Positions 45,925-63,798 are shown, numbered from the whole stretch's first letter. The stretch: 63,798 bases of DNA, filler included, from Licmophora abbreviata (GCA_900291995.1; 18 parts of 18 records of this genome joined end to end with filler, not necessarily neighbours in it); one strand, 5' to 3'. Translations and numbers: made by a program. Notes: generated by a model from the sequence alone, not told the origin.

Positions 45925-46879
45925 GATCGGCCTCCTGCAAGTCGGGTTGCCAGTCCACGGTCTCGCGGCGCTGGTAGTCTGTGAACCAGTCGGGGTCGGT
46001 GCGATACGCCACCCGGCCATCCGGCCAGAGCCGCGCCACCGCCCGGCGCGAGCTGAGGCAGAAGGCATGCACGCTCATCTGCATGCCGCCGGTATGACAA
46101 TAGCCCACCTCGATATTGCAATCGATCACCATGTTCTTGCCCACAAAGCCCATGGCCCCCATGCCGATGGAATTGCCAAGCTCCTTGAATTCATCTTCGA
46201 GGGCCGCGATCTTCGGGTCGGAATTGCGGCTGCCCACGGTGCGCAAGGTGGCGGCGCGCTTGCCGAGCACCATGCAGGTGTCTTTCGATCCGCCAAGCCC
46301 GATGCCGATGATCGCCGGCTGACAGGCCAGCCCCCGCTTGCCGAAGGCCACCAGCGTGTCGAGATAGAACCGCTTGATCCCCTCGATTCCGTCCGAGGGA
46401 AAAAGCATCCGATAATCTGTACCGAACAGCCCGCCCTTGTGCACCGTGATCAGGTCGATCCAGTCGCCTTCCGGTTCGAAACCGTATTCGATTTCGGGTG
46501 CGCCGATGCCGACATTGTTGTTGTGATCGGTGCGCCAAAGGGGATGGACGCGGTTGGGCCTGAGCGGGACGCCGGTGGTGGCATTGGCCGTGGCGCGGCG
46601 CAGGGCCGTTTCCAGAGCGCACATGCCGCCTTCGACCTGCGCCTCATTGCCCATCTTGACGAACCAGCGCGGCACGCCCGTATCGCCGCACATGGCGCGC
46701 CGGTCTTCCTTGGCGGCGGTGTAATTCTCGAGCATGGCCTGCAGCACAAAGGAGGACAGATCGCCATCCTCGGTTTCGGCGGCGGCCTTCAGCCCTTCGA
46801 GGTAATCCTCGGGGATTTCGATGGCTGCCTTGTCCATCAGGGTTTCGGCGGTCTTCTGAATCAGGTCTATGGGGATCAT
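45911..46879 (-). CDS. class I fumarate hydratase / L-tartrate dehydratase alpha-like Fe-S subunit
   Basis: AMCGDTG, ACQP.IIGIGLGG, GMGAMG, CH. Confidence 0.88.
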   Translation of the reverse strand: MIPIDLIQKTAETLMDKAAIEIPEDYLEGLKAAAETEDGDLSSFVLQAMLENYTAAKEDRRAMCGDTGVPRWFVKMGNEAQVEGGMCALETALRRATANATTGVPLRPNRVHPLWRTDHNNNVGIGAPEIEYGFEPEGDWIDLITVHKGGLFGTDYRMLFPSDGIEGIKRFYLDTLVAFGKRGLACQPAIIGIGLGGSKDTCMVLGKRAATLRTVGSRNSDPKIAALEDEFKELGNSIGMGAMGFVGKNMVIDCNIEVGYCHTGGMQMSVHAFCLSSRRAVARLWPDGRVAYRTDPDWFTDYQRRETVDWQPDLQEADHETA

Positions 46880-48633
46880 TGTGCGGCCACCAATGTGTCT
46901 GGTTCGCCCTCGGGCAGGATAGTGCCGCCGGGGCGAACGATGGTGAATTTGACGGGCTCGCGGGTCACGGCGACGCTGTCGCCATCCTGACGGGCCACGG
47001 TGAAATACGAGGTCTCGAGATCGCCTTCGTCGGGGAAATCCTCGCGGTAATGCGCCCCGCGCGAGTTTTCGCGGGCAAGGGCGGCCTGGGCTATGACCTT
47101 CGAGACATCGCAGAGCGACGCCATGTTCAGCCAGTCATGCCAGGTGAGGTTGAAGGCCAGGCTGTCACTGGCGACGCCGGTTTCCATAAGCTCGGCACCG
47201 ATATCGGCGACCTGTGTCATGGCATGGGTCAGTTTGTCCGCGGTGCGCATCACGCCTGCATTGTCCCACATCGCCTCTTGCAGCTTGTGGCGCAGCGGGT
47301 GGACGGCGCCGACACTCTTGCCGAAGGGGCGGCAGGCCCGGGCGATTTCCGCCTCGAGCACATCCGGGTCCGGATCGCGCAAGCCGGGCATGGAGCGAAT
47401 ATCGGCCCCCATCACGTCGCCGGCTATGCCGCCATAGACGGTGGAATTGGCCACGCCATTGCCGCCAAGCCGGTTCGAGCCATGCGCGCCGCCCGCGTCC
47501 TCGCCGGCGACGTAAAGCCCTTCGAGCGCCGTGCGCGTGTCCACATCGACCACGACGCCGCCCATGAAGTAATGCGCGGTCGGCACCACCTCGACCCGGC
47601 CACCGGCCAGATCGAAGCCGCAATCGGCGCAGCGCTTGACCATGCCCTTGAATTTCTCGGCGACGAACGCCGGACCAAGGTGGCCCATTGAGATGTATAC
47701 CCCGCCATTGGGCGAGGTATTGCCGCGGCGCATCTCGTCATAGATGCAGCGGCTGACCACGTCGCGGGTGGCCCGTTCGCCCTTGGGATCATAGTCGAAC
47801 ATGAAGCGATGGCCCGCGCCGTTCAGCAGATGCCCGCCCGCGCCGCGCAGGCCTTCCTCCAGCACGGTGCCGGTCATCCGGGTGTGATCGCCAGCCAGAA
47901 GGCCCGTGGGGTGAAACTGCACCATTTCCATGTCGCGCAGCGGCAGCCCCGCGCGCAGCGCCATGGCCAGACCATCCATCGTCTTGTCGCCGGAAGGGGT
48001 GTGATACTTGTACATGGTCGGGCCGCCGCCCGTGGCCATGAGAACCGCCTTGGCACGCACGAAACGGAAGCGGCCCGTGCGCATGTCGATCATCAGAACG
48101 CCCGCCAGCGCGCGCCCGTCGCGCGTGGGGATAAGGCCGATGGCGCGGTGTTCCTGCAGTTTTTCGACCGGGCGGGCGAGGACCTGTTCCATCAGGCGGC
48201 TGATGATCTCAATTCCGGTCAGATCGCCCTTGTGTACCGTCCGGTCGGCTGTCTGTCCGGCAAAGGCCTTCTGGTGGAGGGAGCCGTCGGGGTTGCGGTC
48301 GAAGAAGCAGCCGATCTCGTTTTCAAGCTCCTGAATGCGGGTCACGGCGGTTTCGCACAGACGCCAGGCCATGTCCTGATCGGGCAGCCATTTGCCGCCG
48401 CTGATCGTGTCCATGAAATGCCGCTCGACGGTATCGCCGCCGCCAAGCGCCACGTTATAGCCCCCCTGCACCATGCGCGTGCAGCCGCATTTACCAATCA
48501 ACCCCTTGACGGCAATGGTGATTTTTGTCCCCTCGGGAGCCGCTTTCTGGGCATGGAGGGCGGCGAAAAGCCCCGCGCCTCCGGTGCCGAGGATCAGGAT
48601 ATCGGTGTCATGGGTGTCGATCTCGGGTCGCAT
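46876..48633 (-). CDS. SDH/FRD-family flavoprotein paralogue
   Basis: GTGGAG, EMVQFHPTG, AHYFMGG, HGSNRLGGN, ENSRGAHYR. Confidence 0.92.
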   Translation of the reverse strand: MRPEIDTHDTDILILGTGGAGLFAALHAQKAAPEGTKITIAVKGLIGKCGCTRMVQGGYNVALGGGDTVERHFMDTISGGKWLPDQDMAWRLCETAVTRIQELENEIGCFFDRNPDGSLHQKAFAGQTADRTVHKGDLTGIEIISRLMEQVLARPVEKLQEHRAIGLIPTRDGRALAGVLMIDMRTGRFRFVRAKAVLMATGGGPTMYKYHTPSGDKTMDGLAMALRAGLPLRDMEMVQFHPTGLLAGDHTRMTGTVLEEGLRGAGGHLLNGAGHRFMFDYDPKGERATRDVVSRCIYDEMRRGNTSPNGGVYISMGHLGPAFVAEKFKGMVKRCADCGFDLAGGRVEVVPTAHYFMGGVVVDVDTRTALEGLYVAGEDAGGAHGSNRLGGNGVANSTVYGGIAGDVMGADIRSMPGLRDPDPDVLEAEIARACRPFGKSVGAVHPLRHKLQEAMWDNAGVMRTADKLTHAMTQVADIGAELMETGVASDSLAFNLTWHDWLNMASLCDVSKVIAQAALARENSRGAHYREDFPDEGDLETSYFTVARQDGDSVAVTREPVKFTIVRPGGTILPEGEPDTLVAAQ

Positions 48634-48635
48634 GG

Positions 48636-48977
48636 TCAGATCGCCTCAAGGAAAAAGGTGCCGGATACGAAGAAGGCCAGCGCCACGGCGGCGGCGGCCA
48701 GGGTTTTGTGATGCGCGGGCCATGGCAGCAGCTCGAGTGCGAGCAGCCGAAGACCGCCGAAGAAATGCACGGCAAGCAGGAAAACAAGGCCGAATTCCGC
48801 AAGTTTCACCGCCGGATTGTCGGTCAGCCGCAGGAAGGCATCAAGCTGCTCGGGCGCGGTCAGGGCCTTGGCCAGAACCCAGAAATGCAGCGGCAGGAAC
48901 AGCGCCAGCGCCAGGCCCGAGATCCTGTGCAGCACGAAGGCCAGCCACAGCGGGTGCGAGCGGGCGGGGCGCATCAT
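48636..48977 (-). CDS. SdhC-like cytochrome b556 anchor
   Basis: LHRISG, VHFFGGLR; three TM segments. Confidence 0.85.
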   Translation of the reverse strand: MMRPARSHPLWLAFVLHRISGLALALFLPLHFWVLAKALTAPEQLDAFLRLTDNPAVKLAEFGLVFLLAVHFFGGLRLLALELLPWPAHHKTLAAAAVALAFFVSGTFFLEAI

Positions 48978-49317
48978 GCCCATGTCACGGCCCAGACGGC
49001 GCGTGCTCCCATGATCAGAAGGCCAAGGCCCACGGCCCATGTCATCACGCTCAGGGCAGGGCCTTTNNNNNNNNNNNNNNNNNNNNNNNNNNNNNNNNNN
49101 NNNNNNNNNNTTAATTAATTAANNNNNNNNNNNNNNNNNNNNNNNNNNNNNNNNNNNNNNNNNNNNAGAAGACCGAGCCTTGCGTGCGGCCAAGGATTTC
49201 CGCAGCGCTCAGCCCACCTTGGATGGCATAGATCATCACGGCGATATGCCCAATCACCAAGGGCGCCATGATGAGGGCTGTAAGCCGTTGAGCCATATAG
49301 AGTTTCAGATCAAGCAT
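48974..49317 (-). CDS. SdhD-like membrane anchor (spans gap 49067-49166)
   Basis: AQRLTALIMAP..GH; C-terminal LLIMGARAVWAVTWA; stop overlaps the next ATG. Confidence 0.8.
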
Positions 49318-50044
49318 CGCGCTTTCTCCGGAGGGCATGACGGAAGGTTTCGCGCTTGAGACCGGCGATGGCCGACATCGGATCAAGCTCGTTCGGGCAG
49401 TACCGGGTGCAGCTGCCCATGGAGTGGCAATTGTGGCAGCCGCCCGAGCCGGAGACGGCGTCGAGGATGGCGGTGCGCCCGCCGTCCTTGGCGTCATTGA
49501 GCAGCGTCCAGGCCCGTTGCAGGGCGGCCGGGCCGAGATAGTCGGGGTTGCCCGCCACGGTATCGCAGGCCGCATAGCAGATGCCGCAATTGATGCATTC
49601 GATGCCAGCATCGGCGGCCTGACGTTCCGGGGTGGCGGCGTCGACGGGGGTAATGGCGTCGTCGCGGGTGCTGGTGGGATGGTGCAGGGCTTCGGCGCTG
49701 ACCCATTTGTCGAAAAACGGATCCATATCGGCGACAAGGTCCTTGATCACCGGCATGTTTCGCAGAGGTTCGATGCGTAAGTAATTGTTTTCAGAAACTT
49801 TTTTGACATGCGTCCGGCAGGTCCAGCGCGGGATGCCATTGACCATCATCGCGCAGCTTCCACACATGCCGACCCGGCAGGCGAAGCGATAGGTCAGGGT
49901 CGGATCGGCCTGCTGCTGGATCCAGCTGACCACGTCGAGCACGGTCTGGCTTTCGCGGGAGGGGACGTCGAAGGTTTCGAACGCCCCTGTCTCGCCCGTC
50001 CCTCGCCAGACGGATACCTTGAGATTCTGCGCCTCGGCCACCAC
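49310..50044 (-). CDS. SdhB/FrdB-like iron-sulfur subunit
   Basis: CRVGMCGSC..C, CINCGICYAAC, CHSMGSCTRYCP. Confidence 0.93.
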   Translation of the reverse strand: MVAEAQNLKVSVWRGTGETGAFETFDVPSRESQTVLDVVSWIQQQADPTLTYRFACRVGMCGSCAMMVNGIPRWTCRTHVKKVSENNYLRIEPLRNMPVIKDLVADMDPFFDKWVSAEALHHPTSTRDDAITPVDAATPERQAADAGIECINCGICYAACDTVAGNPDYLGPAALQRAWTLLNDAKDGGRTAILDAVSGSGGCHNCHSMGSCTRYCPNELDPMSAIAGLKRETFRHALRRKRDA

Positions 50045-50410
50045 GAGCCATGCCCCCTTGTCCTGAATTTGATGTCCCGGGGAGACTATAATGATGAATT
50101 TAGCTAACGAGAAGGAACAAATTCTTATGTTTTTTGTAAGCTAAGCTTTCACATGGGGTTTGTGTGTCGGTATTTACGGGGGATATGGGTCTTGAGGACG
50201 ATTTGGCAGAAGGCGAAGGGCCGCTGGCAAAGACCATAGCAGATCGAGGTTAATGGATCGCAAACCCGACGGCTGGCTTGGGGGAGCGCTGGAAAAGCCA
50301 GTGATTACAGGGGCCGAGACGCCCGCGCCGCGCGGGCGGCGAAGTGGCGGGAGGCCCGGGGGAGCGCGGTCGAGCGGCGGTGAAAGCTGCATTCCACAGG
50401 CGAAAACCCC

Positions 50411-50455
50411 CTTCGGTATCACGTCGGTATTACGTCGGTATTGCGTCGGTATCGG
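50411..50455 (+). repeat. 11-bp tandem array, copy 3 (intergenic)
   Basis: c-ttcggtatcac-gtcggtattac-gtcggtattgc-gtcggtatcgg. Confidence 0.9.
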
Positions 50456-50686
50456 GAGGGGCAGCATCCGGGCGTCCCGATGTGGCCTGCGGGGCGCAGA
50501 GCAGGCCGGCGATCAGGGGTGCAAACGCGCCGCATTGCGCAATTGAGGCCAAATTCAGGACGATTGCCGAGTCTTTGGCCGATAATGGCCACTTTCTATC
50601 CATAATTGCCCGGCACGGTCGGGGGTGAGTGCGAGTGCGTCTGATGTTGTCAGAACGATCTTCAATTCGGATGGACCTCTCGCACC

Positions 50687-52063
50687 GTGCAGCAGACCAC
50701 AGTTTCAGATCAGGACACCAGGGCCGACACCTTGCCGCGCGGGGCGAGCTTGCTGCATGGGCAGTATCTGGTGGAGCAGCATCTTGTCGGCGGCGGGTTC
50801 GGGATGACCTATCTCGCACGCGACAGTCTGGATCGGCGGGTGGTCATCAAGGAATGTTACCCGAGCGCCTTTTGTTGCCGCGCGGGGCGAGAGGTGCGCC
50901 CGCGCAGCGACGCGTTTCACGCGCAATACGAAAGCGTGGTGCATAATTTCATCAACGAGGCGCGGCGGCTGGCCAAGCTCGAGCATCCGGGCATCGTGCA
51001 TGTCCATCAGGTCTTCGAAGAGAACAACACCGCTTATATGGCGATGGATTTCGTCGACGGTCTGGACCTTCTGACGATCCGCGAGGAGGACGCCGGACGC
51101 CTGACGCGCGACGTTCTGGAACGCGCGCTGCGCGACACGCTCGAGGCGCTGGCCTATGTGCATGATTTCGACATCCTGCACCGCGATATCTCGCCCGACA
51201 ATCTGCTGCTGACCGAGGGGGGACAGCTCACGCTGATCGATTTCGGTGCGGCGCGCGAGGGCTATTGCCGCAAGACTCGGGCTCTGTCGGCGGTGTTGTC
51301 GGTCAAGGACGGCTATTCGCCGCATGAATTTTATCTCAAGGACATCGCGCAGACACCGGCGAGCGATCTCTATTCGGTGGCGGCGACCTTTTATCACCTC
51401 ATCACCGGCTCGGCCCCGCCCGACAGCCAGAAGCGGCTGGCGGCGCTGGCTTCGGATTGCGACGATCCCTATCAGCCGCTGGCGCTGGGGCCTTGGGATG
51501 TGAGCCACAACATGCTGGTCTGTATCGACCGGGCCTTGTCGGTGCCACAAAAGGACCGCATCCAGACGGTGGCGGAGTGGCTGGAGCTGATGGACAGCGA
51601 CGAGCTGCTGCCCGTCAGCAAGGAGCACGCCGAGACCGGGCAGGTGCCGACATGGCAGGTCAGGGAACTGGACCCGGCGCTCTTCGATGCGATCACGTCG
51701 CTCGTCGAGGATACCAACACCCATCTCAGGCCCGGTCATGAGGCCAAGGCGCTGCATGCGGTGCCGCGGCATGGCACTGCGGCGCCGGATGCGGGCGATG
51801 GCGCGGACAGCGCGGACCCCGAGCACAAGGCCAAGGACAGAAAGCTGGTCGATATGTTCGGCGAGCCGATCGAGGATGTCGAGGCCTGGCTGAAAGAGCA
51901 GGACCGGCTGACGCAGCGCAATGGCGCAAGGCGCGACCAGCATGAGGCCAAGGATATAGAGCAAGAACCCGTGAAGACCGAAGGCCGCGCGCGCCGGGCG
52001 CCGCTTTTGAGGCGTGTCATGGGGGTGCTCAGGCGCAAGCGCCGCCGGTCTGGCGAGACATAG
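50687..52063 (+). CDS. Hanks-type Ser/Thr protein kinase, soluble
   Basis: GGGFGMTY, VVIKE, NEA, HRDISPDN, DFG, YSPHE, SDLYS; no TM segment. Confidence 0.95.
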   Translation: MQQTTVSDQDTRADTLPRGASLLHGQYLVEQHLVGGGFGMTYLARDSLDRRVVIKECYPSAFCCRAGREVRPRSDAFHAQYESVVHNFINEARRLAKLEHPGIVHVHQVFEENNTAYMAMDFVDGLDLLTIREEDAGRLTRDVLERALRDTLEALAYVHDFDILHRDISPDNLLLTEGGQLTLIDFGAAREGYCRKTRALSAVLSVKDGYSPHEFYLKDIAQTPASDLYSVAATFYHLITGSAPPDSQKRLAALASDCDDPYQPLALGPWDVSHNMLVCIDRALSVPQKDRIQTVAEWLELMDSDELLPVSKEHAETGQVPTWQVRELDPALFDAITSLVEDTNTHLRPGHEAKALHAVPRHGTAAPDAGDGADSADPEHKAKDRKLVDMFGEPIEDVEAWLKEQDRLTQRNGARRDQHEAKDIEQEPVKTEGRARRAPLLRRVMGVLRRKRRRSGET

Positions 52064-52102
52064 GATGACAGAGCATTGGTCCAGACCTGAAAGGATCTGA
52101 AA

Positions 52103-53532
52103 ATGAAATTCATACGCGATATTATTGGCGAAAAGCGCCACCACCCCCGCAAAGAAGCTGATGCGGGGCAAGGGCGCATCCCTGCCGGGCCTGCGGCCGA
52201 TCCGGCTCAGCCGGTTGCAAGCGCGCTGAGATTGCAGCCCGAGCATCGCATCCCCGAGGCCGGGGTGCCGGTGATCCTGCCCGAGCCGGTGGCGCAGGAC
52301 TGGCGCGCCGCCCCGAAAGCCGATCCTTGGGAGGTCGATCCTTGGGAGGCAGCACCCACAAAGGACCGGCTATGGGATGAGGGTGGCGATGAGGATGAAT
52401 ACGCGCCTGCGGAGATCGCCGGGGACGATGGCTTTTCCCCTGCGGTGCAGGAGTTGAGCGAGATCCTCGGGCGCGAGGAAGAGGCGCAGGCCGCCGAGGC
52501 CGAGGACATGGCGCTTGCCGAGGGGGCGGAGGATCTGGCGGAAGATTGGGGGCAGGACGAGACCGGCGTGATGCCCCATGCCGATGCCACCGAGGCCGAA
52601 GCCAGCGACGCGGACACCCCGCTTGCGGATCTGTCCGAGGCCGATCTGAGCGCTTGGCTTGCGCGGATGGACAGGGCGCCTGCCCAGGTCGGGGATGAGA
52701 TGGCCGCAACGCTGGCCGAGGATGCAGCGCCCGAACCGCAGGCAAAGGCAGAGGATGCGGTGGAGCCTGATTTCGCCTTGTCCTTGCGCGCCGTGAAGGA
52801 CGTGATGGGCCAGTCGGCACAGCCTGTGCCAGAGGTTGAGGCGGCGCCCGAGCCTGAGGCGCTNNNNNNNNNNNNNNNNNNNNNNNNNNNNNNNNNNNNN
52901 NNNNNNNTTAATTAATTAANNNNNNNNNNNNNNNNNNNNNNNNNNNNNNNNNNNNNNNNNNNNAGCCTGCTGCCGCCGCGCCCGACAGCGCCGAGCTGCC
53001 GGCTGGCCCGGTGGATGTGCCGACGCCTGCGCTGGGGCGCGGCTCGAGCCGACCGGGGCGCGTCAAGACACGGCTCTTGGGGTTCAATCCGGGGCAGGTG
53101 GCGGGGCTTGATCCGCTGGCCCGCTCCCGGGAGGACGCGCAAGGCAGCGGCGCGAGTTTCCCGGTGGGTTGGCTGGTGGTGGTCAAGGGGCCGGGGCGGG
53201 GGGCTGCCTTTACCCTGCAGGGCGGCGTGGCGCAGATCGGGCGCGGCGCAGGGCAGGCGGTGCGGCTGGATTTCGGCGACAACAGCATCTCGCGGGAAAA
53301 CCATGCCGCCGTCGCCTATGACGATGAAAGCCAGACCTTCTATATCGGGCATGGCGGCAAGGCCAATCTGGTGCGGCGCAATGGCCGGCCGGTTCTGAGC
53401 ACCGAGGAAATGTCGCCCGGCGATCTGATCGTGATCGGCGAGACCACGCTGAAATTCGTGCCGCTTTGTGGTCCGCAGTTCAGCTGGGCCGACGAGACCC
53501 AAGGCGGGCAGGCTCATGCGTCCCTCGGTTGA
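52103..53532 (+). CDS. FHA-domain protein with long acidic N-terminal region (spans gap 52864-52963)
   Basis: C-terminal PVGWLVVVKGPG..IGRG..ISRENHA..L.PGD.I.IG.T.L; Ala/Glu/Pro-rich sequence on both sides of the gap suggests one gene. Confidence 0.82.
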
Positions 53533-54442
53533 TGTGGTCTATGACGCCTCGATGGTTATCGAGCAGGGCCGACGCATGCGTCAGGAAGATGCGATCGTGT
53601 CGGATTTTCCGGCGGGCAACGGCTTTGGCTTCGTCGTGCTGGCGGATGGCATGGGGGGCCATGCGGCGGGCGACATGGCCAGCAAGATCGTGGTTACCGA
53701 GGTGTTCAGCGAGCTGAAGATGCAATCGGGCGATCCGGTCGATCTGGAGGGGCGCATCGGCGAGATCCTCTGTGCGGCGGCGCGCAGTGCGAATGACTGT
53801 GTCGGGCAGTATTCCAGCCAGAGCCCCGGAAGCGAGGGGATGGGGGCGACGCTTCTGGCGCCGGTGCTGATGCAGGATCGGCTGTACTGGATCTCGGTCG
53901 GGGATTCGCCGCTTTACCTGTTTCGTGATGGCAGCCTGCGGCGGTTGAACGAGATCCATTCGGTCATGTCGCAGATCGATTACCTTGTGGACAGTGGCAT
54001 TATGGCGCGCGAGGAGGCCGTGAACCATCCCGATCAGCAATGCCTGACATCGGTGCTGATCGGGCGCGAGATCCCACAGATCGATTGCCGCGCCGTCCCG
54101 GTGCAACTGGAGCATGGCGATATCCTGATCGCGGCGAGCGACGGGTTGCAGGCGCTGGGCGATGACCGGATCGAGGAATTGTTGCGCTTCACCCGGCAGC
54201 AGAGTGCCGCGCAGATCGGCGAGGGACTGTTGCGCGACATTGCGCGGCTGGACGATCCCGAGCAGGACAATGTGTCGTTCTGCGTGGTCAAGCTGCTCAA
54301 GCAAACCGAGATGGCCAAGACCGACGACGCGTCCGAGATGGTCGAGGCAGCGGATGACCTGCTGCGCGAGACCCGCCATGGGCGCCGCGGCTCTGTCACC
54401 ATTCTGGCGCGCGTGTCGCGCGCGCGGGAGGTGGCGGGATGA
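53516..54442 (+). CDS. PP2C-family Ser/Thr phosphatase
   Basis: RQED, LADGMGGH, SVGDS, ASDGL, QDN. Confidence 0.95.
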   Translation: MRPSVDVVYDASMVIEQGRRMRQEDAIVSDFPAGNGFGFVVLADGMGGHAAGDMASKIVVTEVFSELKMQSGDPVDLEGRIGEILCAAARSANDCVGQYSSQSPGSEGMGATLLAPVLMQDRLYWISVGDSPLYLFRDGSLRRLNEIHSVMSQIDYLVDSGIMAREEAVNHPDQQCLTSVLIGREIPQIDCRAVPVQLEHGDILIAASDGLQALGDDRIEELLRFTRQQSAAQIGEGLLRDIARLDDPEQDNVSFCVVKLLKQTEMAKTDDASEMVEAADDLLRETRHGRRGSVTILARVSRAREVAG

Positions 54443-54472
54443 CGCCTTGTGAAGGTGGCGGGATGACGCCTT
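54429..54472 (+). repeat. 20-bp direct repeat at the PP2C stop
   Basis: aggtggcgggatgacgcctt at 54429-54448 and 54453-54472. Confidence 0.9.
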
Positions 54473-54494
54473 ATCAGGACCGAGGAGAGATGTC

Positions 54495-55029
54495 GTGAGC
54501 AGATCCGATGCCACAATGCCCGTCGTGGACCGTCTGGAAAGCGCGCTGGAAACCGCCGATATTCCGGGACCCTATCATCGCTGGGGGTCGCGGCTTCTGT
54601 CGCATCTGCGCAAACCCGTGCAGGTGGTGGTGACCGGTCTGCCGGGCAGCGGCAAGACCGCTTTGGTCAACATGCTGGCGGGCCGCACGGTGCTGGGGGG
54701 GCAGGATGAGGCGGCCATCTCGGAAGTGGCCTATGGCCCGGATGCCCGCGCGGTGTTCGAGATGCAGGATGGATCGGTCGCGGTCAGTGCCGGGCTGGTG
54801 CGCGACGTGGCCTGGCCTGCGGATGTGCGCCTGACCCGTCAGGAACTTCCCGACCCGAGGCTGGAGCGGCAGAGCCTTGTGGAGATCGGCCTTCCGGCCG
54901 ATCCCGCGCAGCAGGCCGCCAGACTGCAGGAGATCGTGGCGCGGGCCGACATGATCCTGTGGTGCACCGAGCGGTTCGACGAGGCCGAACAACGGCTATG
55001 GGCCGGGGTGCCGGATACTCTCAAGGATC
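54495..55029 (+). CDS. dynamin-like P-loop protein 1 (degenerate; 3' part in gap)
   Basis: VVVTGLPGSGKTALVNML G1; ADMILWCT; no DxxG in the visible part. Confidence 0.7.
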
Positions 55030-55129
55030 NNNNNNNNNNNNNNNNNNNNNNNNNNNNNNNNNNNNNNNNNNNNTTAATTAATTAANNNNNNNNNNNNNNN
55101 NNNNNNNNNNNNNNNNNNNNNNNNNNNNN

Positions 55130-56963
55130 GGGTTGGGCGGATCTCTTGCCGTCGGATGTGAACCCGTGGACCTCGGTCGTGACCTCGCTGCATCTCACGC
55201 CGGCCAGCCGCCGGGCCGAGACAGGCGCGCGGTTCCGCTTCATGACCGAGGCCGAATGGGACCGTCTGACCACCAAGGGCGGGCGGATCGGAGAGCTGGC
55301 GGGCCGCGCCGATGCGGCTGGCGAGCTTGAGAAAATCCGCCGCCAGATCGACACGATACGCGAAACCGCAGCCAGACGGCTTGGCCGGAATTTCGAGTTG
55401 CTGATGGGGCAGGAGCACGATTACGGCTATTTCGACAAGAACCTGCTGGAGCGCTATATCTGCCTTGGCGACGATTTCGAGTCAGAAGATGACGGCCAGA
55501 CCGGCGACGATCAGGGACGGTTCGCCGACATCACCCGATCTGCCGAATTGTTCCTGAATTGCCAGACGGTGCCGTTCCGGATGTGTCTGCGCGACACGCC
55601 CGGCGTGAACGACACGTTCATGATGCGCGAGATGGTCACGATCAACGCCGTGCGCGACAGCAAGCTGTGTGTTGTCGTGCTCTCGGCGGGGCAGGCGCTG
55701 ACCTCGGTGGACATGGCGCTCATTCGGATGATCGCCAATCTCAAGTCGCGCGATGTGGTGATCTTCGTCAACCGGATCGACGAGTTGCCCGACCCGGCGG
55801 CACAGGTGCCCGAGATCGAGCAGAGCATCCGGCAGACCCTGAAGGATCACGACGGGCCAGTGGATGCCGAGATCATCTTTGGAAGCGCCTATTGGGCCGG
55901 TGCCGTACTGAGCGGCGAGATCGAAGAGATGGACGACAAAAGCGCCGCGGCGCTTATGGAGTGGGCGCGGCACCGGCTGGAGGCGTCGCTTGCCCGGCAA
56001 TCGGCACCCAACATCGTCTGGGAAATGTCCGGCCTGCCGACGCTGTGGCGCGCCGTGTCGGAGCGGATCGTCGGCACCCTGGGCAATTCCTGTCTTGCCA
56101 ATGTTGCCAGATCCGCGATCACCATCGGCACATCCCGGCAGGCGGCGCGATCGGTGGTGATCGAGGGCGCGGGCGGGGCCTCGGAGATCAGCATGCACGA
56201 GCTGCGCGCGGCGATGGACAAGGTGGCCAGCGACAGCATGGCAGCACTCGAGGCCGATCTCGAGGCGATCTTTGCCGAGTACCGCCAGCGGGCCGACCGC
56301 GCGCATGAGACATTCCTTGACCGCGCGACCCATTCGCTGCTCGAGCATCTCGAGCGGCGCGGTGCCGAGCATATGTGGGACTACGACCCCACGGGGCTGC
56401 GGATGCTGTTGCGATCGGCCTATTCGGTGCTGTGCAAAAGGGTGAAGGCCGCAGCCGAGCGGCATTACGAAGCGGCGGTGCGTGATGCGGCGGGGGTGCT
56501 CTATCAGGGCTTCGGTGCGGCGGTCGAGGGAATCCAGCTGGGCGTGCCGCAGGTTCCCGAAGCGCCCGCGCCGGTGGCGCTGGCTCAGACCATCGCGCTT
56601 GATTTCAACGACAGCTGGTGGGCGTCCTGGTGGCGCCGCGCCCGAGGGCAGACNNNNNNNNNNNNNNNNNNNNNNNNNNNNNNNNNNNNNNNNNNNNTTA
56701 ATTAATTAANNNNNNNNNNNNNNNNNNNNNNNNNNNNNNNNNNNNNNNNNNNNATGAAGGATGCGCAGACCGTCGATATCCGGGCCGGGGTGCTGCGCGG
56801 GATGACGGCGTTTTTCGACCAGCAGAAGGATGTGCTGTTCGAGCTGACATCTGGAGCGCATCGCGGCGGCGGGGTGGAGGGGCTTTTCGCCTCGGACGAG
56901 GAACGGCAGCGCCGGGAGCTGCTGGATAGCGCGCTCGAAACCTTTGAGCGACATGCAGCATGA
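55130..56963 (+). CDS. dynamin-family GTPase 2 with helical stalk (5' end in gap; spans gap 56654-56753)
   Basis: LLPSDVNPWTSVVT (G2), DTPGVND (G3), VNRIDE (G4), long helical C-terminus. Confidence 0.85.
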
Positions 56964-57922
56964 TGGAAGAGATGGCCATGAGCACAGCAGAACTGATCCC
57001 CGAGACGGCCGCACGCAAACCGCGGCTTGCCCTGATGGGAGAATTCAGCGCGGGCAAGAGCACGCTGTCGAACATGCTTCTGGGGGGCGCGCCGCTGCCG
57101 GTGCGGATCACCGCGACCCGCCTGCCGCCGATCTGGATCAGCCATGGCGCGGATCGCGCCGTGGCCGTGGGCCATGACGGGACCGAGCGGGATCTGGATA
57201 TCGCGGAGCTTGACGAGGTGTCGCTGGCGGATACGCGGGTGATCCGGCTGCAGACCGAAGCCGATACGCTGGAGATCTGCGATCTGATCGACATGCCGGG
57301 GATTTCCGACCCCAACATGTCCTCCGAGGTCTGGACGTCGATGATCCGCGAGGTCGACAGCGTCGTGTGGTGCACCCATGCGACACAGGCCTGGCGGCAA
57401 TCCGAGGCGGCGGTCTGGGACCAGATCGCCGGGGGCACCAACGGGCGCAACCTGTTGTTGATGACCCAGATGGACAAGCTGCGCAACACGCGCGACCGGA
57501 GCCGCGTGCTCAAGCGGGTGCAGAAAGAGGCGGGCGATCTTTTCGAGGCGATCTATCCGGTCTCATTGACCGAGGCGCTGGCCGCCGAAGAGGATGCGAG
57601 CCTTTGGGATGCCAGCGGTGCGGGGGCCTTTGTCGAGCATCTGGTCGATCTGCTGCTCAATGCGCCTTTGGCCGCGGGCACGGAGCCCTATCGGTCCGCG
57701 CCTGCGGGACATGATCCGTTCGACAGGCTGACCGGACAGGCCGAGAGCCCGTCGGCGCGGGCTGGGGTGGTGCTCGCTGCGGTCGAGGACCCGGCCAGCC
57801 CTGATGCGCGTGCGGACGTCGCGCCGGCGATCATGCCGCGGCGCGTGCAGGCGCCATCAGACAATCCGAGACGATCGGCGCGGCCCGGGCGATCCGGCCC
57901 GCCGGGCCACGGAGATGAATGA
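56960..57922 (+). CDS. dynamin-family GTPase 3 (GTPase domain only)
   Basis: LMGEFSAGKSTLSN, PVRITAT, DMPGISDP, TQMDKL; ATGA overlap with the previous gene. Confidence 0.88.
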   Translation: MMEEMAMSTAELIPETAARKPRLALMGEFSAGKSTLSNMLLGGAPLPVRITATRLPPIWISHGADRAVAVGHDGTERDLDIAELDEVSLADTRVIRLQTEADTLEICDLIDMPGISDPNMSSEVWTSMIREVDSVVWCTHATQAWRQSEAAVWDQIAGGTNGRNLLLMTQMDKLRNTRDRSRVLKRVQKEAGDLFEAIYPVSLTEALAAEEDASLWDASGAGAFVEHLVDLLLNAPLAAGTEPYRSAPAGHDPFDRLTGQAESPSARAGVVLAAVEDPASPDARADVAPAIMPRRVQAPSDNPRRSARPGRSGPPGHGDE

Positions 57923-57946
57923 CCAGATGATCGCAATGGGGGAAAA

Positions 57947-58312
57947 ATGAGCCTTTCGGACCGACTTGACGAGATGCGTGCCGGGATCGCGGGCTGTTCC
58001 CTGGTGTCGTTCGGGGATTTGCAGACCTCGCTGGCGCTGCGCACCAGTTCTGCGGCCCCATGCCCGCGCGAACGGCTGGACGAGATTTTCGCACAGGCGG
58101 CGGCAGGGTTCGCGGCGGCGGACAGGCTTGCGGCAGAGGCCGAGCCGGTCGGCGATCTGTTTGTTCTGACGCCTTCGGATGTGCGTGTCTTCGTGCGATC
58201 GCTGCGCAACCCGGCGGATGTGGTCTGTGCCGTGGGCGAGACGACGGACGCGATCGGGACGATGACCGCACGCGCGAAACTCATTCTTGATTACGCGGAG
58301 CGACCAAGCTGA
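57947..58312 (+). CDS. small protein, roadblock/LC7 (MglB/profilin-like) fold suspected
   Basis: 121 aa; LDEMRAGIAGCSLVSFGDLQTSLAL helix-beta-beta pattern; fold call is inference. Confidence 0.55.
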   Translation: MSLSDRLDEMRAGIAGCSLVSFGDLQTSLALRTSSAAPCPRERLDEIFAQAAAGFAAADRLAAEAEPVGDLFVLTPSDVRVFVRSLRNPADVVCAVGETTDAIGTMTARAKLILDYAERPS

Positions 58313-59112
58313 TGGGACGCATCTTGCCAGCCAGTTCGACGCCCGATACCAGCACCCTCCTGCATCTGCGCCGGACCCTAGCGCGCGTGGCAGCACCCGA
58401 TGCCGATCTGCGGGCGAGCCTGCGGGAAGTCGCACATGGCCCGGAGGATCTGATCCGTCTGGTGGCGCGGCAGATCGAAGAGACGGTGTTGCCCCGGTCC
58501 TATGCGCTGATCGCCGACCGGCAGGACCTGGCGCGGCTGAGCATTTCAAACCGCAGGCTGATGGCGCTTTCTTTGGTGACGCAGGAGACGGATATGGGTG
58601 CCGACGAGGGGGCGTTGAGCGCCGCACAGATCTATGCCCGGCGCTTGCATGCGCTGGCGCGCGATGGGGCAGGGCCGGTGCGCCTGCATCTGCTGGGCCG
58701 CGCCAGCGGGTTGGGCGGGGGCATGGCCAGTTGCTCGGCGCGGGCGCTGGCCGAAAGCTTTGCCGCATTGGGCGGCGATGGCGGGCTGAACGGCTTTTTC
58801 GAACTGCTGTCCGGGCAATGTCTGGCGTGGCTCAGGGTTGAGGGCGGGCACGGCGAGATCGGCAGCGCCGGGCCGGCTGATGTGCTCGCGACACTGCGGC
58901 GCTTGTTGCCGGAGCATGGCCGGACGGGCTGCCCCAAACTCGGGCAAAAACCGGCCTGCACGGTCATCGCGCTGGGCGATGCCGGGCGCGCGGTGATCGC
59001 GACCGTCGGCGCGGAGTGCATGCTGGCCCTGGTTCCCGAGGCGGGCATGGCGGCGGTGCTAGCGGCCTGGAAGGCGAGCCAACGCCCGGCACGGGCGGCG
59101 CAGAGGCCCTGA
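58312..59112 (+). CDS. hypothetical protein
   Basis: 266 aa; TGATG coupling to the previous gene. Confidence 0.7.
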   Translation: MGRILPASSTPDTSTLLHLRRTLARVAAPDADLRASLREVAHGPEDLIRLVARQIEETVLPRSYALIADRQDLARLSISNRRLMALSLVTQETDMGADEGALSAAQIYARRLHALARDGAGPVRLHLLGRASGLGGGMASCSARALAESFAALGGDGGLNGFFELLSGQCLAWLRVEGGHGEIGSAGPADVLATLRRLLPEHGRTGCPKLGQKPACTVIALGDAGRAVIATVGAECMLALVPEAGMAAVLAAWKASQRPARAAQRP

Positions 59113-59220
59113 GCTTCGGCGCGAGACGCGCCAAAGGCCCAAAATTCACCGCAATCGCGACCAAATAAATTCGCGAAGCACCGATAGACCGGGGCAATTG
59201 TAGAGCTGGTAATTCAAGAC

Positions 59221-60535
59221 ATGAACACAACGGACGATCCCAAGGTCAGACTGGAACATGACCTGTCGAGCGACACGCTTGAGCGGCAGTTGCGCGACTA
59301 TGTCAACATCACCAAGAAACTGATCTGGCAACGCCAGGCGAGCTTTCTTGCGGCGATGATCCTGTCGGCTTTCTATTTCGATCCGGCGCTTGCGCTGGTG
59401 TGCTATTCGGGTCTGTTGTTCAGCGAAGTTCTGGATCTGGTTCTGACCCGGCGCGTTCAGCAGTGGGAGGGCAACGACCCGGTCGCGGCGCGCAGATTTC
59501 TTGTCTGGGTCATGGTCAATACCGGGATGAGCGCGGTCACCATCTCGCTTTTCGTGTTGTTGATCGCCATTCAGCAGAATTCCGGCGGCCATTTCATGCC
59601 GCTGTTCTTCCTGTTCGCGGCGGCGCTTTTCGCGGCGATGAACAACCACCAGATCCTGCCATCGCTGATCTTGCGGCTGATGATTTACGGGGCCACGTTC
59701 CTGACGATTTCGGTGATGGATATCGTCCTGCTCAGACCGCCGCTCGATTCGCATCACTGGCTTGAATTCTTCACGGTCGCCTTCGTGCTGTATTTCATCG
59801 TCGATTGTTCGTTCGTGTTTCTCAAGCTCTACCGCAAGGGCCTCAAGCAGCTGCAGAAGATCAAGCTGGAACATGACCGCGCCAAGCGCGCCTATGAGAT
59901 CAAGTCGCAATTCCTGTCGACGATGAGCCATGAGTTGCGCACGCCGCTGACCTCGATCAAGTTCTCGCTGGACCTGATGAATTCAGGCTGTGTGGCGCAG
60001 GTGCCCGACGATCTGAAGCCGATCCTCGATATTGCGGTGAAGAACAGCAACCGGCTGGCCGAACTCATCAACGAGACGCTGGATCTGCAGAAGATCGAAA
60101 GCGGCGAGATGATCTTCCGCTTCCAGAGCCTTGATATCTCGCGGGTGGTCTCCGATAGCGTCGATGCGATCATGGCGCAGGCCAATGCCGAGCAGATCGA
60201 AGTGCGCAAGGAATTCCCGGAAGACGAGGTGTTCATCAACGGCGACGAGGCGCGCATCCAGCAGGTGCTTGGCAACCTGTTGTCGAACGCGTTGAAATTC
60301 TCGGAGGCGGGGGGCGTCATCACGGTCCGGGTTGAGCAGAACAAGGACCGTGTGCGCGTCAGCGTGCAGGATACCGGCACAGGGATTCCGGAAAACTGCG
60401 AGGCACAGGTGTTCGGCCGGTTCAGCCAGGTGGATTCGTCGGATCGGCGCAAGGTCGGCGGGACCGGTCTTGGCATGAATATCTCAAAGCGGATCATCGA
60501 GCGGCATAACGGCACGATCCACTACAAGAGCCGCC
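59221..60535 (+). CDS. membrane sensor histidine kinase (3' end in gap)
   Basis: Several TM segments; SHELRTPL, NLLSNALKF, DTGTGIP, GGTGLG. Confidence 0.95.
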
Positions 60536-60731
60536 NNNNNNNNNNNNNNNNNNNNNNNNNNNNNNNNNNNNNNNNNNNNTTAATTAATTAANNNNNNNNN
60601 NNNNNNNNNNNNNNNNNNNNNNNNNNNNNNNNNNNCGCAATCACGATGCGGCGCAGGACTGGTCCGGCGGGGCCGACCGGCATCTCGGGGAAGGGCGGAT
60701 GGTCGCCGGGGAGTGATCCCCGGCGTGCGGC

Positions 60732-61478
60732 TCAATTCATCGCGTTGACGGCGTTGAACAGGATGGCCTGGCTATACGTGCCGTCGATATGGAAGCGCGG
60801 GCCGATCGGCACGGCGCGCAGATCGAGCCGCCGCAACCAACGCGCCCAGATCGCCGGAACGATGCCGATCACATGCGATGCCCCTTCGGCCCGCGCGGTC
60901 GAGATCAGCTTGCTGACAAGCACCTGCTGGATATCGAAGCGGCGTTGGGCGGGCACGGTCTCGGTGATGAACACGCGCGCGGCTTCCCAGACCTTGGGAT
61001 CGACCGGGGCCTGCATGAACAAAACATCCGTCGGCATGTTGTCCAGAATGCCGCGCTGCGCATCGCGCAGCATGTAGCTGTAGATGCCGCAGTGGGCCGT
61101 GGTCGGCAGAAGCCGGATACCGGCCAGGATCTCGCCGAATTCATGCACGACGATCCAGCGGCATTGCGGCGTGTCGTACTGGTCGAACTCCATGCCGTCG
61201 GTCTGATAGATGTCCCAGTCCAGCTGATCGATGAACACGTGTTTGCGCGCCCTGAGGTAATTGACCAGCAGCTCACCGTAATTGTGCATGTTGGCGAAAG
61301 ACAGGCTGCTGGCGCGGACATTCGCGATCCCGGTGCTCTGGTTGCGTTCCGCGCGAATTCTGAGGCGTTTCTTGTCACGGCTGCTCGTTAGCGCCCGCGA
61401 GGGCGCTCCATCCGGTGACAGCTCTGGAAATACGGACGCTGCCGGAGAAGTTTCCGGAGGCACTTTAAATGTTTTCAT
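60732..61478 (-). CDS. LuxI-family acyl-homoserine-lactone synthase
   Basis: RKHVFIDQLDW, EFDQYD, IRLLPT, VWEAAR; start uncertain. Confidence 0.85.
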   Translation of the reverse strand: MKTFKVPPETSPAASVFPELSPDGAPSRALTSSRDKKRLRIRAERNQSTGIANVRASSLSFANMHNYGELLVNYLRARKHVFIDQLDWDIYQTDGMEFDQYDTPQCRWIVVHEFGEILAGIRLLPTTAHCGIYSYMLRDAQRGILDNMPTDVLFMQAPVDPKVWEAARVFITETVPAQRRFDIQQVLVSKLISTARAEGASHVIGIVPAIWARWLRRLDLRAVPIGPRFHIDGTYSQAILFNAVNAMN

Positions 61479-61704
61479 AACCTGCGCTCAATAATGGCTT
61501 TTTAGTGGCTATTATGAGACATGGTGATGCATTTGTGCCAGTTCTTTTTTGCGTTGGCGCAACATTTGGCTGGCTTGCGGCAAGATTGTCCTTGATTTGA
61601 AGGCTATCGCGCCACGCATGACTTGGCGGCAGGCGTGGCTTTGCCACGTTTTTCCTGAGATTTTGGGGGTTTGGTCGCGCGCAAAGCCGCGCTGGCCGCC
61701 GGTC

Positions 61705-62802
61705 TCAGCCTTTGGGCATGAGCATCTTGGCAGGCGGCCAGTTGCCGTCTGAACTGCGGATATCGTCCTTGAAGAGTGCGCGATAGCCGCGCGCTTCGAG
61801 ATGCGCCAGCTCGTCGTTGAAATAGAGGTTGCCCAATTGCCGTGCCGGAACCTTGTCGAGCGATTTGGCGATGTTCAGCGACTCGACGCTTTTGACCGCC
61901 TCGTAAAGCGCAAAAATCGCATCATCGGGGGTCTTGACCCTGAAGGGCACCCCCAGCACGTGGTGCACCCGGGCCTGTGCCGCCGCATCCGCGCGATCAA
62001 GCTGGCCTGCGGCCTGTGCCAAAGCCCTCTGAAGGCGTGCATTGAGAAGCCGGGCGAAGCCGGGGCAGGCGATCAAAAAGATGCCCCTGCCGCGATAGGA
62101 AAACATCGCGTCGAGCTTGCGCATGCCGACCGACAGCAATCTGCCATAGGCCGAGATTACGCGGATCAGCTCGGCGCCGGACAGTTCGTCCTGCAACCGC
62201 TCGAAATTCGAGATCTTCAAAGCGCCGACGCTGAACCGCTTGGAGGTCTGCTGCGCGCGTTTGAGCACGAAATTCTCGAAGGCGAGATATTCCACGAGCC
62301 GCGGCAGATCCAGCGATTCAAGATGCGCGGCAAGGTCGATATCGGATGACGTGATCGTGCGCGCGACAGGCTGTCCAAAGGCATCGACACCGCCTGCGGG
62401 CTTGTAATGGGCGATATCCGTGCGCTGCCACGATCGCAGCTTTTCGCGCAGATCCTGAAAGTCGAACGGCTTGTTCAGATAATCCGACGCCCCTGCCGCG
62501 AACGCGTTGTCGAGATAGTGGCGTTGTGACATCGCGGTCAGCATGATGACGGGCGTCGTCGCATAGCGCGGATCGGTGCGGACATACCGGCACAGGCTGA
62601 TCCCATCAAGCTCGGGCATCTGAATGTCGAACAGCAGGCAATCGAAGGCGGTTTCATCCTTCTTGAGGATATTGATGGCTTCCGCACCCGAAAGGGCCGT
62701 GACAATCTCGTGATTGTCGCTGGCGCTGAGCGATCGTTCGATCAGTTCGACGAAGGAATCGTCATCATCCACGGTGAGGATCTTCATCCGGGTATCCGCC
62801 AT
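61705..62802 (-). CDS. response regulator (REC + degenerate GGDEF-like C-terminus)
   Basis: ILTVDDD, FDIQMPELDG, MLTA, KPF; MFSYRGRGIFL where GGDEF would lie. Confidence 0.85.
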   Translation of the reverse strand: MADTRMKILTVDDDDSFVELIERSLSASDNHEIVTALSGAEAINILKKDETAFDCLLFDIQMPELDGISLCRYVRTDPRYATTPVIMLTAMSQRHYLDNAFAAGASDYLNKPFDFQDLREKLRSWQRTDIAHYKPAGGVDAFGQPVARTITSSDIDLAAHLESLDLPRLVEYLAFENFVLKRAQQTSKRFSVGALKISNFERLQDELSGAELIRVISAYGRLLSVGMRKLDAMFSYRGRGIFLIACPGFARLLNARLQRALAQAAGQLDRADAAAQARVHHVLGVPFRVKTPDDAIFALYEAVKSVESLNIAKSLDKVPARQLGNLYFNDELAHLEARGYRALFKDDIRSSDGNWPPAKMLMPKG

Positions 62803-63258
62803 TCTGGAAACAGGTGTCTTGGACTGAAGGAACTCGATACCCAAACTCTCAATGGAGGCTGCCCGACAAATCGGGAAAATCTTTGTGCAAATTAAGGTCG
62901 AACTTGGATGATCCGGGCGGGCAAGCGATGCAGGATTCGGGATCTTTTGGGCGCGATGCCGCCCCCGGTGCCCAGTTTTTACATCATTCTGCCAAATTCT
63001 TCATGGCCCGAGCATGGCCGTATCCGACGTCCCTGCCGCCTATCTCCCTTCAAAACATCGGAAAAAACCGATTCCCCGCGTGGCCTTTGGGCATGTGTTC
63101 GGCGCGGCCTTTGGCCAGTGGACGTCACTCTAACGCCATATTTTGAACGACATCGTTAACTAGCCTGACAAATGTGTGTCGGTACGCATCCAAAGCCTGC
63201 GGGACGTATCTTTTTTGCAGTCAGCAGTCATTCGTGGATCACACGGGAGACCGACAGG

Positions 63259-63798
63259 ATGAAGATTCTGCTGGTAGACGATGACGAAAGCATTCTGGCC
63301 CTGCTCAAGCAATTCCTGAGCGTGTCGTGCGGGCATGAGGTAACCGCCTGCCCGGGCGGCGTGGAGGCGTTGGACTGCATCGCAACCAGCGAAGAGCAGT
63401 TCGACTGTTTCGTGCTCGACATCCAGATGCCGCAGATCGACGGGATCACCTTGTGTGAAAAGATCCGCAACACGCCCCGTTATGCCAATACGTCGATCAT
63501 CATGCTGACGGCGATGGCGCAGCTCGACCATCTGGATCGCGCCTTTGCGGCGGGGGCCAACGACTATATCACCAAACCCTTCGAGCTTGGTGAATTGCGG
63601 GCGCGGATCAAGAGCAGCCAGCGGTTCGCCCGCAGCGAAGGGCCTGAAAGCAGCAGCTCGTCGATGGAGAGCGCCGAAAGCCCCCGGACCGGTGGAGATG
63701 CGCCCTCTGACGACACGACCGAGGATGATGGCTTCGCCGAAGTCATCGACATCCGCAATATCGATCGCGTTCTCAGCTACACCGCCTTCGAGAATTAC
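63259..63798 (+). CDS. paralogous response regulator (runs off window)
   Basis: Manual translation MKILLVDDD..LDIQMPQIDG..MLTAM..TKPF..RVLSYTAFENY. Confidence 0.9.
   Translation, partial: MKILLVDDDESILALLKQFLSVSCGHEVTACPGGVEALDCIATSEEQFDCFVLDIQMPQIDGITLCEKIRNTPRYANTSIIMLTAMAQLDHLDRAFAAGANDYITKPFELGELRARIKSSQRFARSEGPESSSSSMESAESPRTGGDAPSDDTTEDDGFAEVIDIRNIDRVLSYTAFENY

Follow-up and report, generated by a model that had tools for sequence, protein, structure and literature searches.

Closest described systems and layout of the operon

In Campylobacter jejuni, two adjacent genes encode two different dynamin-like proteins (DLPs), Cj-DLP1 and Cj-DLP2 (PDB 5OWV; PMC6104087), which are cytosolic and without transmembrane (TM) helices. 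Nostoc BDLP1/2, IniA/IniC and DynA are other operon-paired bacterial DLPs. Here we describe an operon of marine bacteria of the Roseobacter group that contains such a pair, at positions 50687-59112 (+ strand) of a 63.8-kb stretch of DNA filed under Licmophora abbreviata (GCA_900291995.1); the whole stretch is called the window below. The eight co-oriented genes encode, in this order, a Hanks-type Ser/Thr kinase, an FHA protein, a PP2C phosphatase, three dynamin-family GTPases (GTP1, GTP2 and GTP3) and the proteins p121 and p266, which are predicted to pair through a Roadblock interface. We lean, by a modest measure, towards a cytoplasmic, peripherally membrane-acting dynamin-like machine that would stand under a dedicated Ser/Thr phospho-switch.

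Bacterial DLPs are found widely, but how they are switched on is largely unknown, and the operon is a compact, self-contained case that encodes candidate regulators beside the machine. We found no published function for it. The literature searched, with subscription journals outside its scope, has papers on the separate parts and none that combines them. The sequence-only reading, an earlier interpretation of the window from its DNA alone, likewise knew of no characterised system with such a make-up.

The Campylobacter pair is the nearest to GTP2 and GTP3. Both loci have adjacent genes for two different DLPs, and a TM helix is absent from all eight proteins of the operon by hydropathy; heterotypic pairing is expected here as in the other operon-paired DLPs. 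Unlike the Campylobacter proteins, GTP3 is composed of a G domain and a disordered tail, with neither neck nor trunk. Furthermore, the operon adds a degenerate third paralogue, a Roadblock pair and a kinase/FHA/PP2C triad, and there is no mention of such partners in the available text of PMC6104087. LeoA/LeoB/LeoC of enterotoxigenic Escherichia coli share with the operon three dynamin-related genes in a row, one of them truncated or split, and a weak similarity to profile models. In the available text of PMC4159319, LeoC and LeoB are two halves of one membrane-anchored DLP, whereas here the G domain is whole in both GTP1 and GTP3, and a TM segment is found in neither. The Leo locus also has no kinase, FHA protein, PP2C or Roadblock partner.

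As for the regulators, RdcA/RdcB-DgcE of E. coli, as presented in the available text of PMC13463826, likewise relies on a dynamin homologue and an accessory protein as a regulated switch, with a single DLP, a diguanylate cyclase output and neither a kinase triad nor Roadblock proteins. Roadblock proteins are treated in the available text of PMC13343842 as GTPase-activating proteins (GAPs) or platforms for small GTPases. MglB (with MglC) and its GTPase MglA, CvnB/MfpD (PMC13343842, same text) and LAMTOR/Ragulator with Rag have in common with p121/p266 the Roadblock fold (p121) or a resemblance to it (C-terminal domain of p266), the a2/b3 dimer (predicted here) and genes beside GTPases. The differences are that the neighbours here are dynamin-family and not Ras-like, that there is no Pfam Roadblock match, and that p266 has an extra N-terminal domain. 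The locus is not a conservon: a small Ras-like CvnD is missing, and the fixed order of histidine kinase, CvnB and CvnC is not seen.

In the threonine phosphorylation pathway of type VI secretion systems (T6SS), PpkA (Hanks kinase), Fha1 (FHA reader) and PppA (PP2C eraser) have their genes beside those of the machine that they presumably switch. By comparison, the operon kinase is soluble and not a transmembrane receptor kinase, and its presumed target is the dynamin set. T6SS regulation was considered and rejected, as VipB/TssC (PF05943), the sheath gene, gave no match in the 99% complete genome of the closest relative, Roseovarius litoreus DSM 28249, and a control search found it in E. coli. 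No secretion-system family was found in the 46 other open reading frames (ORFs) of the window either (Pfam, E <= 1e-5), in line with the sequence-only reading.

The genes of the operon are as follows, with positions in the window:

50687..52063, +, kinase; Pfam Pkinase 4.2e-29
52103..53532, +, FHA protein; FHA 1.7e-5, Yop-YscD_cpl 7.8e-6; broken by the linker at 52864-52963
53468..54442, +, PP2C; PP2C_2 4.4e-10; start codon uncertain, overlaps the FHA gene
54495..55029, +, 5' part of GTP1; 178 of 415 codons, the remainder in the 1073 bp lost at a linker
55130..56963, +, GTP2; first ~90 codons lost; broken by the linker at 56654-56753; Dynamin_N 1.9e-11
56960..57922, +, GTP3; start overlaps the GTP2 stop by 4 nt; Dynamin_N 3.7e-10
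57947..58312, +, p121; Roadblock/LC7 fold in the AlphaFold2 model
58312..59112, +, p266; two domains, the C-terminal one Roadblock/longin-like in the model

The eight co-oriented ORFs announced by the sequence-only reading are present, and its composition of a phosphothreonine (pThr) writer, reader and eraser, three dynamin-family P-loop proteins and a Roadblock-fold protein is confirmed. One correction concerns the FHA gene: the 270-aa acidic ORF and the 173-aa FHA ORF of the window are halves of one 463-aa gene (6393-7784 of the R. litoreus locus, L013). Three gene pairs are probably coupled, as their ends overlap or nearly abut, with median intergenic distances of -4 nt (PP2C-GTP1), -4 nt (GTP2-GTP3) and -1 nt (p121-p266). 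The median spacers are wider between GTP1 and GTP2 (~135 nt) and between GTP3 and p121 (~60 nt).

The window is not continuous DNA. It is made of 18 contigs of 1.5-7.5 kb joined by 17 identical artificial linkers, N44-TTAATTAATTAA-N44, placed across it from 4933-5032 and 8255-8354 to 60536-60635. Contig ends cut genes, with up to ~1 kb lost per join, and three linkers fall inside the operon (52864-52963, 55030-55129 and 56654-56753). Window positions 45698-63798 are colinear with one R. litoreus contig at 93-97% identity, with order and orientation kept, and by this comparison 33, 1073 and 62 bp are lost at the three operon linkers. Single Logan contigs of three runs, X1 (36.5 kb), X2 (19.9 kb) and X5 (36.9 kb), also span the R. 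litoreus operon (L013 4828-14500) at ~96% identity, with small indels only and no break. These runs hold all sampled words of the window; they are possibly its own source, and so are not independent samples. Given the R. litoreus colinearity and the single Logan contigs across all three gaps, it is settled that the pieces joined there are neighbours in the actual DNA, which answers the doubt about adjacency raised in the sequence-only reading. The full-length gene set is seen in the complete R. litoreus locus; the proteins have 458 (kinase), 463 (FHA), 324 (PP2C), 415 (GTP1), 687 (GTP2) and 320 (GTP3) aminoacids.

Some small differences separate the strain of the window from R. litoreus. In the former, 39 bp of the acidic FHA linker are replaced or deleted (L013 6814-6854), 24 bp are inserted in the PP2C-GTP1 spacer (L013 8680) and 38 bp are deleted 3' of p266 (L013 14278-14317). 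The linker region of the FHA gene is one that evolves by indels.

GTPases, predicted Roadblock pair and putative phospho-switch proteins

GTP2 matches Dynamin_N with 44.7 bits, against a cut-off of 27, and its profile matches the C. jejuni DLP 5owv_A (4.4e-11) and the Nostoc BDLP 2j68 (1.9e-7). Motifs G1-G4 are intact, with GQVKSGKT, DTPG and NRID kept in 76 orthologues. A conserved Trp-rich patch, DFNDSWWASWWRR (residues 581-593), is a putative membrane paddle; the paddle of Nostoc BDLP presumably lies at a similar relative position. The length of 687 aa and this patch fit a DLP with neck, trunk and paddle, as judged from sequence features. The C-terminal 69 aa of the protein can be read in the window.

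GTP3 has 40.5 bits with Dynamin_N, against the same cut-off of 27, and a profile match to 5owv_C over residues 17-229 (1.9e-17). G1, the switch-I T53 and DxPG are invariant in 74/74 orthologues, and in the G4 motif TxxDK the D and K are invariant, with the T present in 72/74. Beyond the G domain there are ~85 residues, Pro-rich and poorly conserved.

GTP1 shows a different picture. Two observations alone link it to the dynamin family, namely that it is a paralogue of GTP3 (hhalign probability 99.6%, E 7e-24) and that its profile weakly matches 5owv_C (E 4e-5); it has no Pfam Dynamin_N match at E <= 5. The P-loop (G1) is kept in 72/72 orthologues and the G4 motif T.AD in 70/72. At G3, the Asp is replaced by Glu in 68/72 and the Gly position is Leu in 61/72; DxxG is lost and no switch-I Thr is conserved among the 72. 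GTP1 therefore does not have the catalytic G3 and switch-I residues of the family, although its homology to GTP3 is clear. From this motif state we read GTP1 as a nucleotide-binding, hydrolysis-impaired protein, which probably still binds guanine nucleotide without hydrolysing it. The three dynamins of the sequence-only reading thus become two intact ones, GTP2 and GTP3, and a catalytically degenerate one.

The AlphaFold2 model of p121, from an alignment of 70 orthologues, has a pLDDT of 92.1 and the topology a-b-b-a-b-b-b-a. Foldseek against the PDB returns 103 matches at E <= 0.001, the best with E 3e-6, probability 1.00 and a TM-score of ~0.75. The top structural matches are LAMTOR2/p14, MglB, and Streptomyces, other bacterial and Asgard Roadblock proteins. 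The fold that had been suggested for this 121-aa ORF therefore stands, with no support from Pfam Roadblock (PF03259), which matches neither p121 nor p266 at E <= 5.

In the case of p266, the model (63 orthologues) has a pLDDT of 84.3 and two domains. None of the 63 p266 members matches PF03259 at E <= 1, and they match no other Pfam family. No Foldseek match reaches E <= 0.001. In a VIA-align comparison with 48,161 chains, the top rows include the C-terminal domain of RagC (Z 6.8), CPLANE (6.7), an Asgard Roadblock protein (6.4), MglB (6.0) and MglC (5.2), all falling on C-terminal residues ~146-262, and the C-terminal domain (~159-261) resembles a Roadblock/longin fold in the model. The N-terminal domain has nearly invariant EIDETVLPR and SNRRL motifs; an atlas gives PatA_N plus Robl_LC7 proteins, scored 0.82-0.85, as leads only.

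When modelled together, p121 and p266 reach an ipSAE of 0.84 in three runs, against 0.01 for the best of 3 controls. The mark used for ipSAE is reached by 51 of 78 solved complexes and by 2 of 108 mismatched pairs. The runs share at least 90% of their contacts, with a partner pLDDT of at least 88. Residues 194-198, 209-221, 227/229 and 250-259 of p266 contact 46-63 and 68-76 of p121, that is, helix a2 and strand b3 of both, which is the canonical Roadblock dimer interface. The models support a pairing of p121 and p266 through this interface. The shared fold is visible in structure only, because hhalign between the two finds no detectable sequence homology (probability 0.8%). What the sequence-only reading had called a coupled unknown protein is the predicted Roadblock-type partner of p121.

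The kinase keeps its G-loop, VIK, HRDxxxxN, DFG and SPxE motifs in 67 orthologues and is soluble, with a hydrophobic segment in 1/67. The kinase tails (window ~51990-52060) vary in sequence, yet almost every one closes with a short stretch that is basic and amphipathic (LLRRVMGxLxRRRRR and LLRxFRKLxxxR are examples), which may be a membrane-targeting helix. The sole Pkinase match in the R. litoreus genome is the operon kinase, and no second FHA protein is found there at genome-level thresholds. Across the family, a Pkinase match is present in 153/301 Rhodobacteraceae genera; as read off two search tables, it is found in 60/63 genera with p266 and in 93/238 without. In at least 21 of the cases listed, p266 shares its contig with a kinase frame of ~440-490 aa at a distance of 8-10 kb. 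A Pkinase match alone does not mark the operon, because the family has other, longer kinases too.

The FHA protein is composed of a conserved N-terminal MKFIRDII, a long, acidic and variable linker, an invariant RVKTRLLGF and a C-terminal FHA domain, whose core motifs are kept in 56 orthologues. It matches the NCBIfam models FhaB and OdhI, both below cut-off. RVKTRLLGF lies ~30 residues before the FHA core and has a Leu at +3 from the Thr; many FHA domains prefer pTxxL. The motif resembles the self-binding phosphosite of GarA/OdhI. These FHA switches share with this protein a single FHA domain and, ~30 residues before it, a Thr motif that could be phosphorylated and bound in cis. They differ from it in that an acidic N-terminal extension of ~300 residues is present here, and in the context, a GTPase operon instead of metabolic enzymes. 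Finally, the PP2C keeps its metal-binding motifs DGMGG, GDS, SDG and DN in 71 orthologues and matches the Stp1/IreP family at 7.1e-39, below the NCBIfam cut-off.

Conservation, proposed mechanism and rival explanations

A pattern scan with the GTP2 alignment, using one genome per species, found 516 stretches encoding a relative, of which the best 80 were taken as loci. These 80 are all Rhodobacterales by title, except two bins with implausible names. All eight genes occur in order in 59 of the 61 loci with enough flank, by profiles of all eight proteins that were built from the same loci, and the order proposed from the window is therefore conserved; the other 19 loci had short flanks and were left out. 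The two exceptions are one locus with GTP3 unassigned (L083) and one with an ordering glitch (L093).

The p266 profile is found in 63/301 sampled Rhodobacteraceae genera and was not found outside the family in an even sample of 401 Alphaproteobacteria, which gave two family members and one false positive. The latter, the match in G316, is actually DprA. Among 1.84 billion representatives, 1130 proteins match the profile at E <= 0.001; most of the best 150 have 250-280 aa, a few are shorter fragments, and no one exceeds 300 aa. In the genus of R. litoreus, 13/25 genomes have a strong full-length GTP2 match. Some Rhodobacteraceae (e.g. G483, G612, G596, G515, G642 and G657) have two or three p266 homologues on different contigs, which implies that duplication can affect the cassette, in whole or in part. 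In terms of inheritance, the GTP2 tree shows 22 genus-label changes against a minimum of 20 (FastTree only, with imperfect NCBI genus names), which points to a mainly vertical descent, with losses.

A GTP3 profile run on 401 Pseudomonadota, a tally that includes the unpublished genome G1078, matches 5 of 20 family members and, from a different alphaproteobacterial family, a single genome (G906). The latter (twice) and a Rhodobacteraceae genome, at a second locus (G867), have a long and a short DLP without the other six genes. In the GTP2 tree, which holds 79 long-DLP sequences, these pairs fall outside the clade of the 76 operon copies. The two-gene modules, with a long DLP of 697-744 aa and a short one of 306-398 aa, are:

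L113, 7647-10920
L114, 7733-10860
L115, 8017-11287

Because the DLP pair also stands alone, we regard it as the core and the other six genes as an added layer.

From the observed gene content, motif states, folds, conservation and co-inheritance, together with the predicted p121-p266 pairing, we propose the following mechanism. GTP2, a long DLP of the BDLP1/Cj-DLP1 class with its Trp-rich putative paddle, and GTP3, short and with an intact G domain, would form a heterotypic core that hydrolyses GTP via G-domain pairing, like other bacterial DLP pairs, and that would tether, seal or reshape the inner membrane. The other six proteins, found only with this version of the pair, would be its regulatory layer. 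In this layer, GTP1 would be a pseudo-GTPase subunit holding or priming GTP2/GTP3. A Roadblock heterodimer, made of p121 and the p266 C-terminal domain, would bind to a G domain and act there as a platform, a GAP or a guanine nucleotide exchange factor, a role modelled on MglB, CvnB and Ragulator with small GTPases. The kinase would write a pThr mark, the FHA protein read it and the PP2C erase it, and the invariant Thr of RVKTRLLGF is the best candidate phosphosite. Depending on this mark, the machine would be either soluble and off or assembled and on, and our guess for the trigger is envelope or membrane stress.

That the triad toggles GTPase assembly, as the sequence-only reading also supposed, we infer from the way the operon is built and from the lack of any other Pkinase match in the R. 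litoreus genome. The links from kinase to FHA protein, Roadblock dimer and GTPases, and likewise the membrane target and the trigger, are put forward as inferences too. The narrower proposal, in which the Roadblock heterodimer and the pseudo-GTPase regulate the dynamin pair under kinase/FHA/PP2C control, is tentative, and we hold it as possible rather than probable. If true, Roadblock proteins would for the first time be linked to the regulation of a dynamin, and a bacterial dynamin would for the first time have a known phospho-switch. Bacteria would then have their own version of the Roadblock/longin-plus-GTPase logic that eukaryotes use in membrane traffic, placed on a membrane-remodelling engine. 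Should the Roadblock dimer act on a dynamin-type G domain, Roadblock/longin regulators would reach beyond small GTPases. The operon is present in about one fifth of the sampled Rhodobacteraceae genera, including the culturable Roseovarius, Leisingera and Seohaeicola.

Several points weigh against a phospho-switched membrane machine. Roadblock proteins are known for small Ras-like GTPases and not for dynamins, and dynamins are usually self-activating. GTP3 is not a canonical DLP, because it has no helical stalk (neck and trunk). The VIA-align Z scores of p266, 5-6.8, are modest and in a range that is common for this tool, and resemblance to solved Roadblock dimers may have contributed to the p121-p266 score. 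Furthermore, the dynamin homologue RdcA acts as a pure signalling switch (available text of PMC13463826), and by this precedent membrane remodelling is not the sole possible output.

This precedent leads to the rival explanation of a GTP- or phospho-sensing signalling module, in which the GTPases and the Roadblock dimer would serve as switches, like RdcA/RdcB-DgcE or a conservon, and their output could be a regulator beside the operon, such as the set of histidine kinase, LuxI-type synthase and response regulator. RdcA works as a GTP sensor in the available text of PMC13463826, and conservons, in that of PMC13343842, bring a GTPase together with a kinase, an unknown protein and a Roadblock protein, CvnB/MfpD, which serves as GAP. 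By its motifs, GTP1 resembles a nucleotide-binding, non-hydrolysing sensor. In the window, the genes directly 3' of the operon encode a histidine kinase, an autoinducer synthase and a response regulator, and these families recur in 19, 21 and 26 of at most 67 loci. However, the two-component and LuxI genes are missing from most loci and have no fixed order or orientation. GTP2 retains all catalytic motifs, the full DLP length and the conserved Trp-rich patch, and the GTPases are of dynamin type and not Ras-like. We consider such a module unlikely, although it deserves to be kept in mind.

Anti-phage defence of the dynamin kind, which the sequence-only reading had offered as an alternative, fares worse, and we give it a low probability. 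Here infection would be sensed through the kinase, and the dynamins would then delay lysis or make the infection abortive, similar to DynA-like sealing or to LeoABC, the Eleos defence system of PADLOC. The PADLOC LeoA and LeoBC models do match GTP2 and GTP3 (3.4e-10 and 1.5e-7; 3.5e-6 and 1.1e-4), and the kinase matches the PD-T4-6 (3e-43) and MADS mad6 (5.2e-38) kinase models. These matches are partial, with LeoA on 243-484, as generic dynamin and Hanks-kinase similarity would give, and five of the eight proteins have no or only a marginal PADLOC match. The spread is patchy over genera and within the genus of R. litoreus, with two or three copies in some genomes, and the copies in Leisingera are plasmid-borne (12 of 18 plasmid records with a match); yet these plasmids are typed non-mobilizable and the GTP2 tree mainly follows the genus. 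A search of 50,697 phage records with GTP2 gave no match, the proteins have no TM anchor such as that of LeoBC (available text of PMC4159319), and the neighbours in the window are tricarboxylic acid cycle, transport and photosynthesis genes, not defence or mobile ones. The last group of neighbours suggests another role, the building or maintenance of photosynthetic (intracytoplasmic) membrane. Dynamin-like proteins act on thylakoids in cyanobacteria and chloroplasts, and crt, bch, puf and puh genes are found at ~100-38000, ~12 kb 5' of the operon. Reaction-centre genes, as read off two tables, are present in 35/63 genera with p266 and in 105/238 without, a small difference among related genomes, and non-phototrophic Leisingera carry the operon on plasmids. 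With such weak co-occurrence across genera, the link to phototrophy was rejected, and a function of this type appears very improbable.

Upstream element and genomic surroundings

A conserved element precedes the operon:

50563..50615, +, upstream element; ~75-125 nt 5' of the kinase start; inverted repeat TGGCC-N6-GGCCA

Its core, from an alignment of 67 upstream regions, is TTG.CCgA.t...GCCAcGtTctgatCACAaT. A pattern derived from this core is found in 20/67 upstream regions, against 0.3 expected from shuffles, and in 0/72 coding controls. The element is a candidate promoter or operator. It accompanies the operon even where the flanking genes differ. The motif is not repeated in the GTP1-GTP2 spacer (2/72). 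CtrA, lux-box, RpoN and ECF-type patterns are not enriched 5' of the kinase, a scan for sigma-70 promoters and terminators shows no excess over shuffles, and no known RNA family reaches its gathering score in the operon.

The genes 3' of the operon are:

59221-60591, +, membrane histidine kinase, directly 3' of the operon
60732-61478, -, LuxI-type autoinducer synthase; PF00765, 1.2e-13
61705-62844, -, response-regulator protein

The 3' histidine kinase is found on the same strand within the fetched flank in 11/80 loci (tblastn), and directly 3' of p266 only in close Roseovarius relatives.

The photosynthesis cluster (window 114-37785) contains phytoene synthase and desaturase, bchXYZ-like genes, pufL/M/C, puhA and a pucC-like gene, as well as bchM, bchH, bchB, bchF, a PpsR-like regulator and a bchE-like radical SAM gene. 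By this gene content, the organism is probably an aerobic anoxygenic phototroph.

Lastly, the RefSeq copy of the operon in Leisingera has GTP1, p121 and p266 named as "hypothetical protein". On a plasmid of Leisingera caerulea (NZ_CP081085.1; L116 531-3666), genes for a divergent HWE histidine kinase and for a biliverdin-producing heme oxygenase lie ahead of the operon and together look like a bacteriophytochrome-type light sensor.

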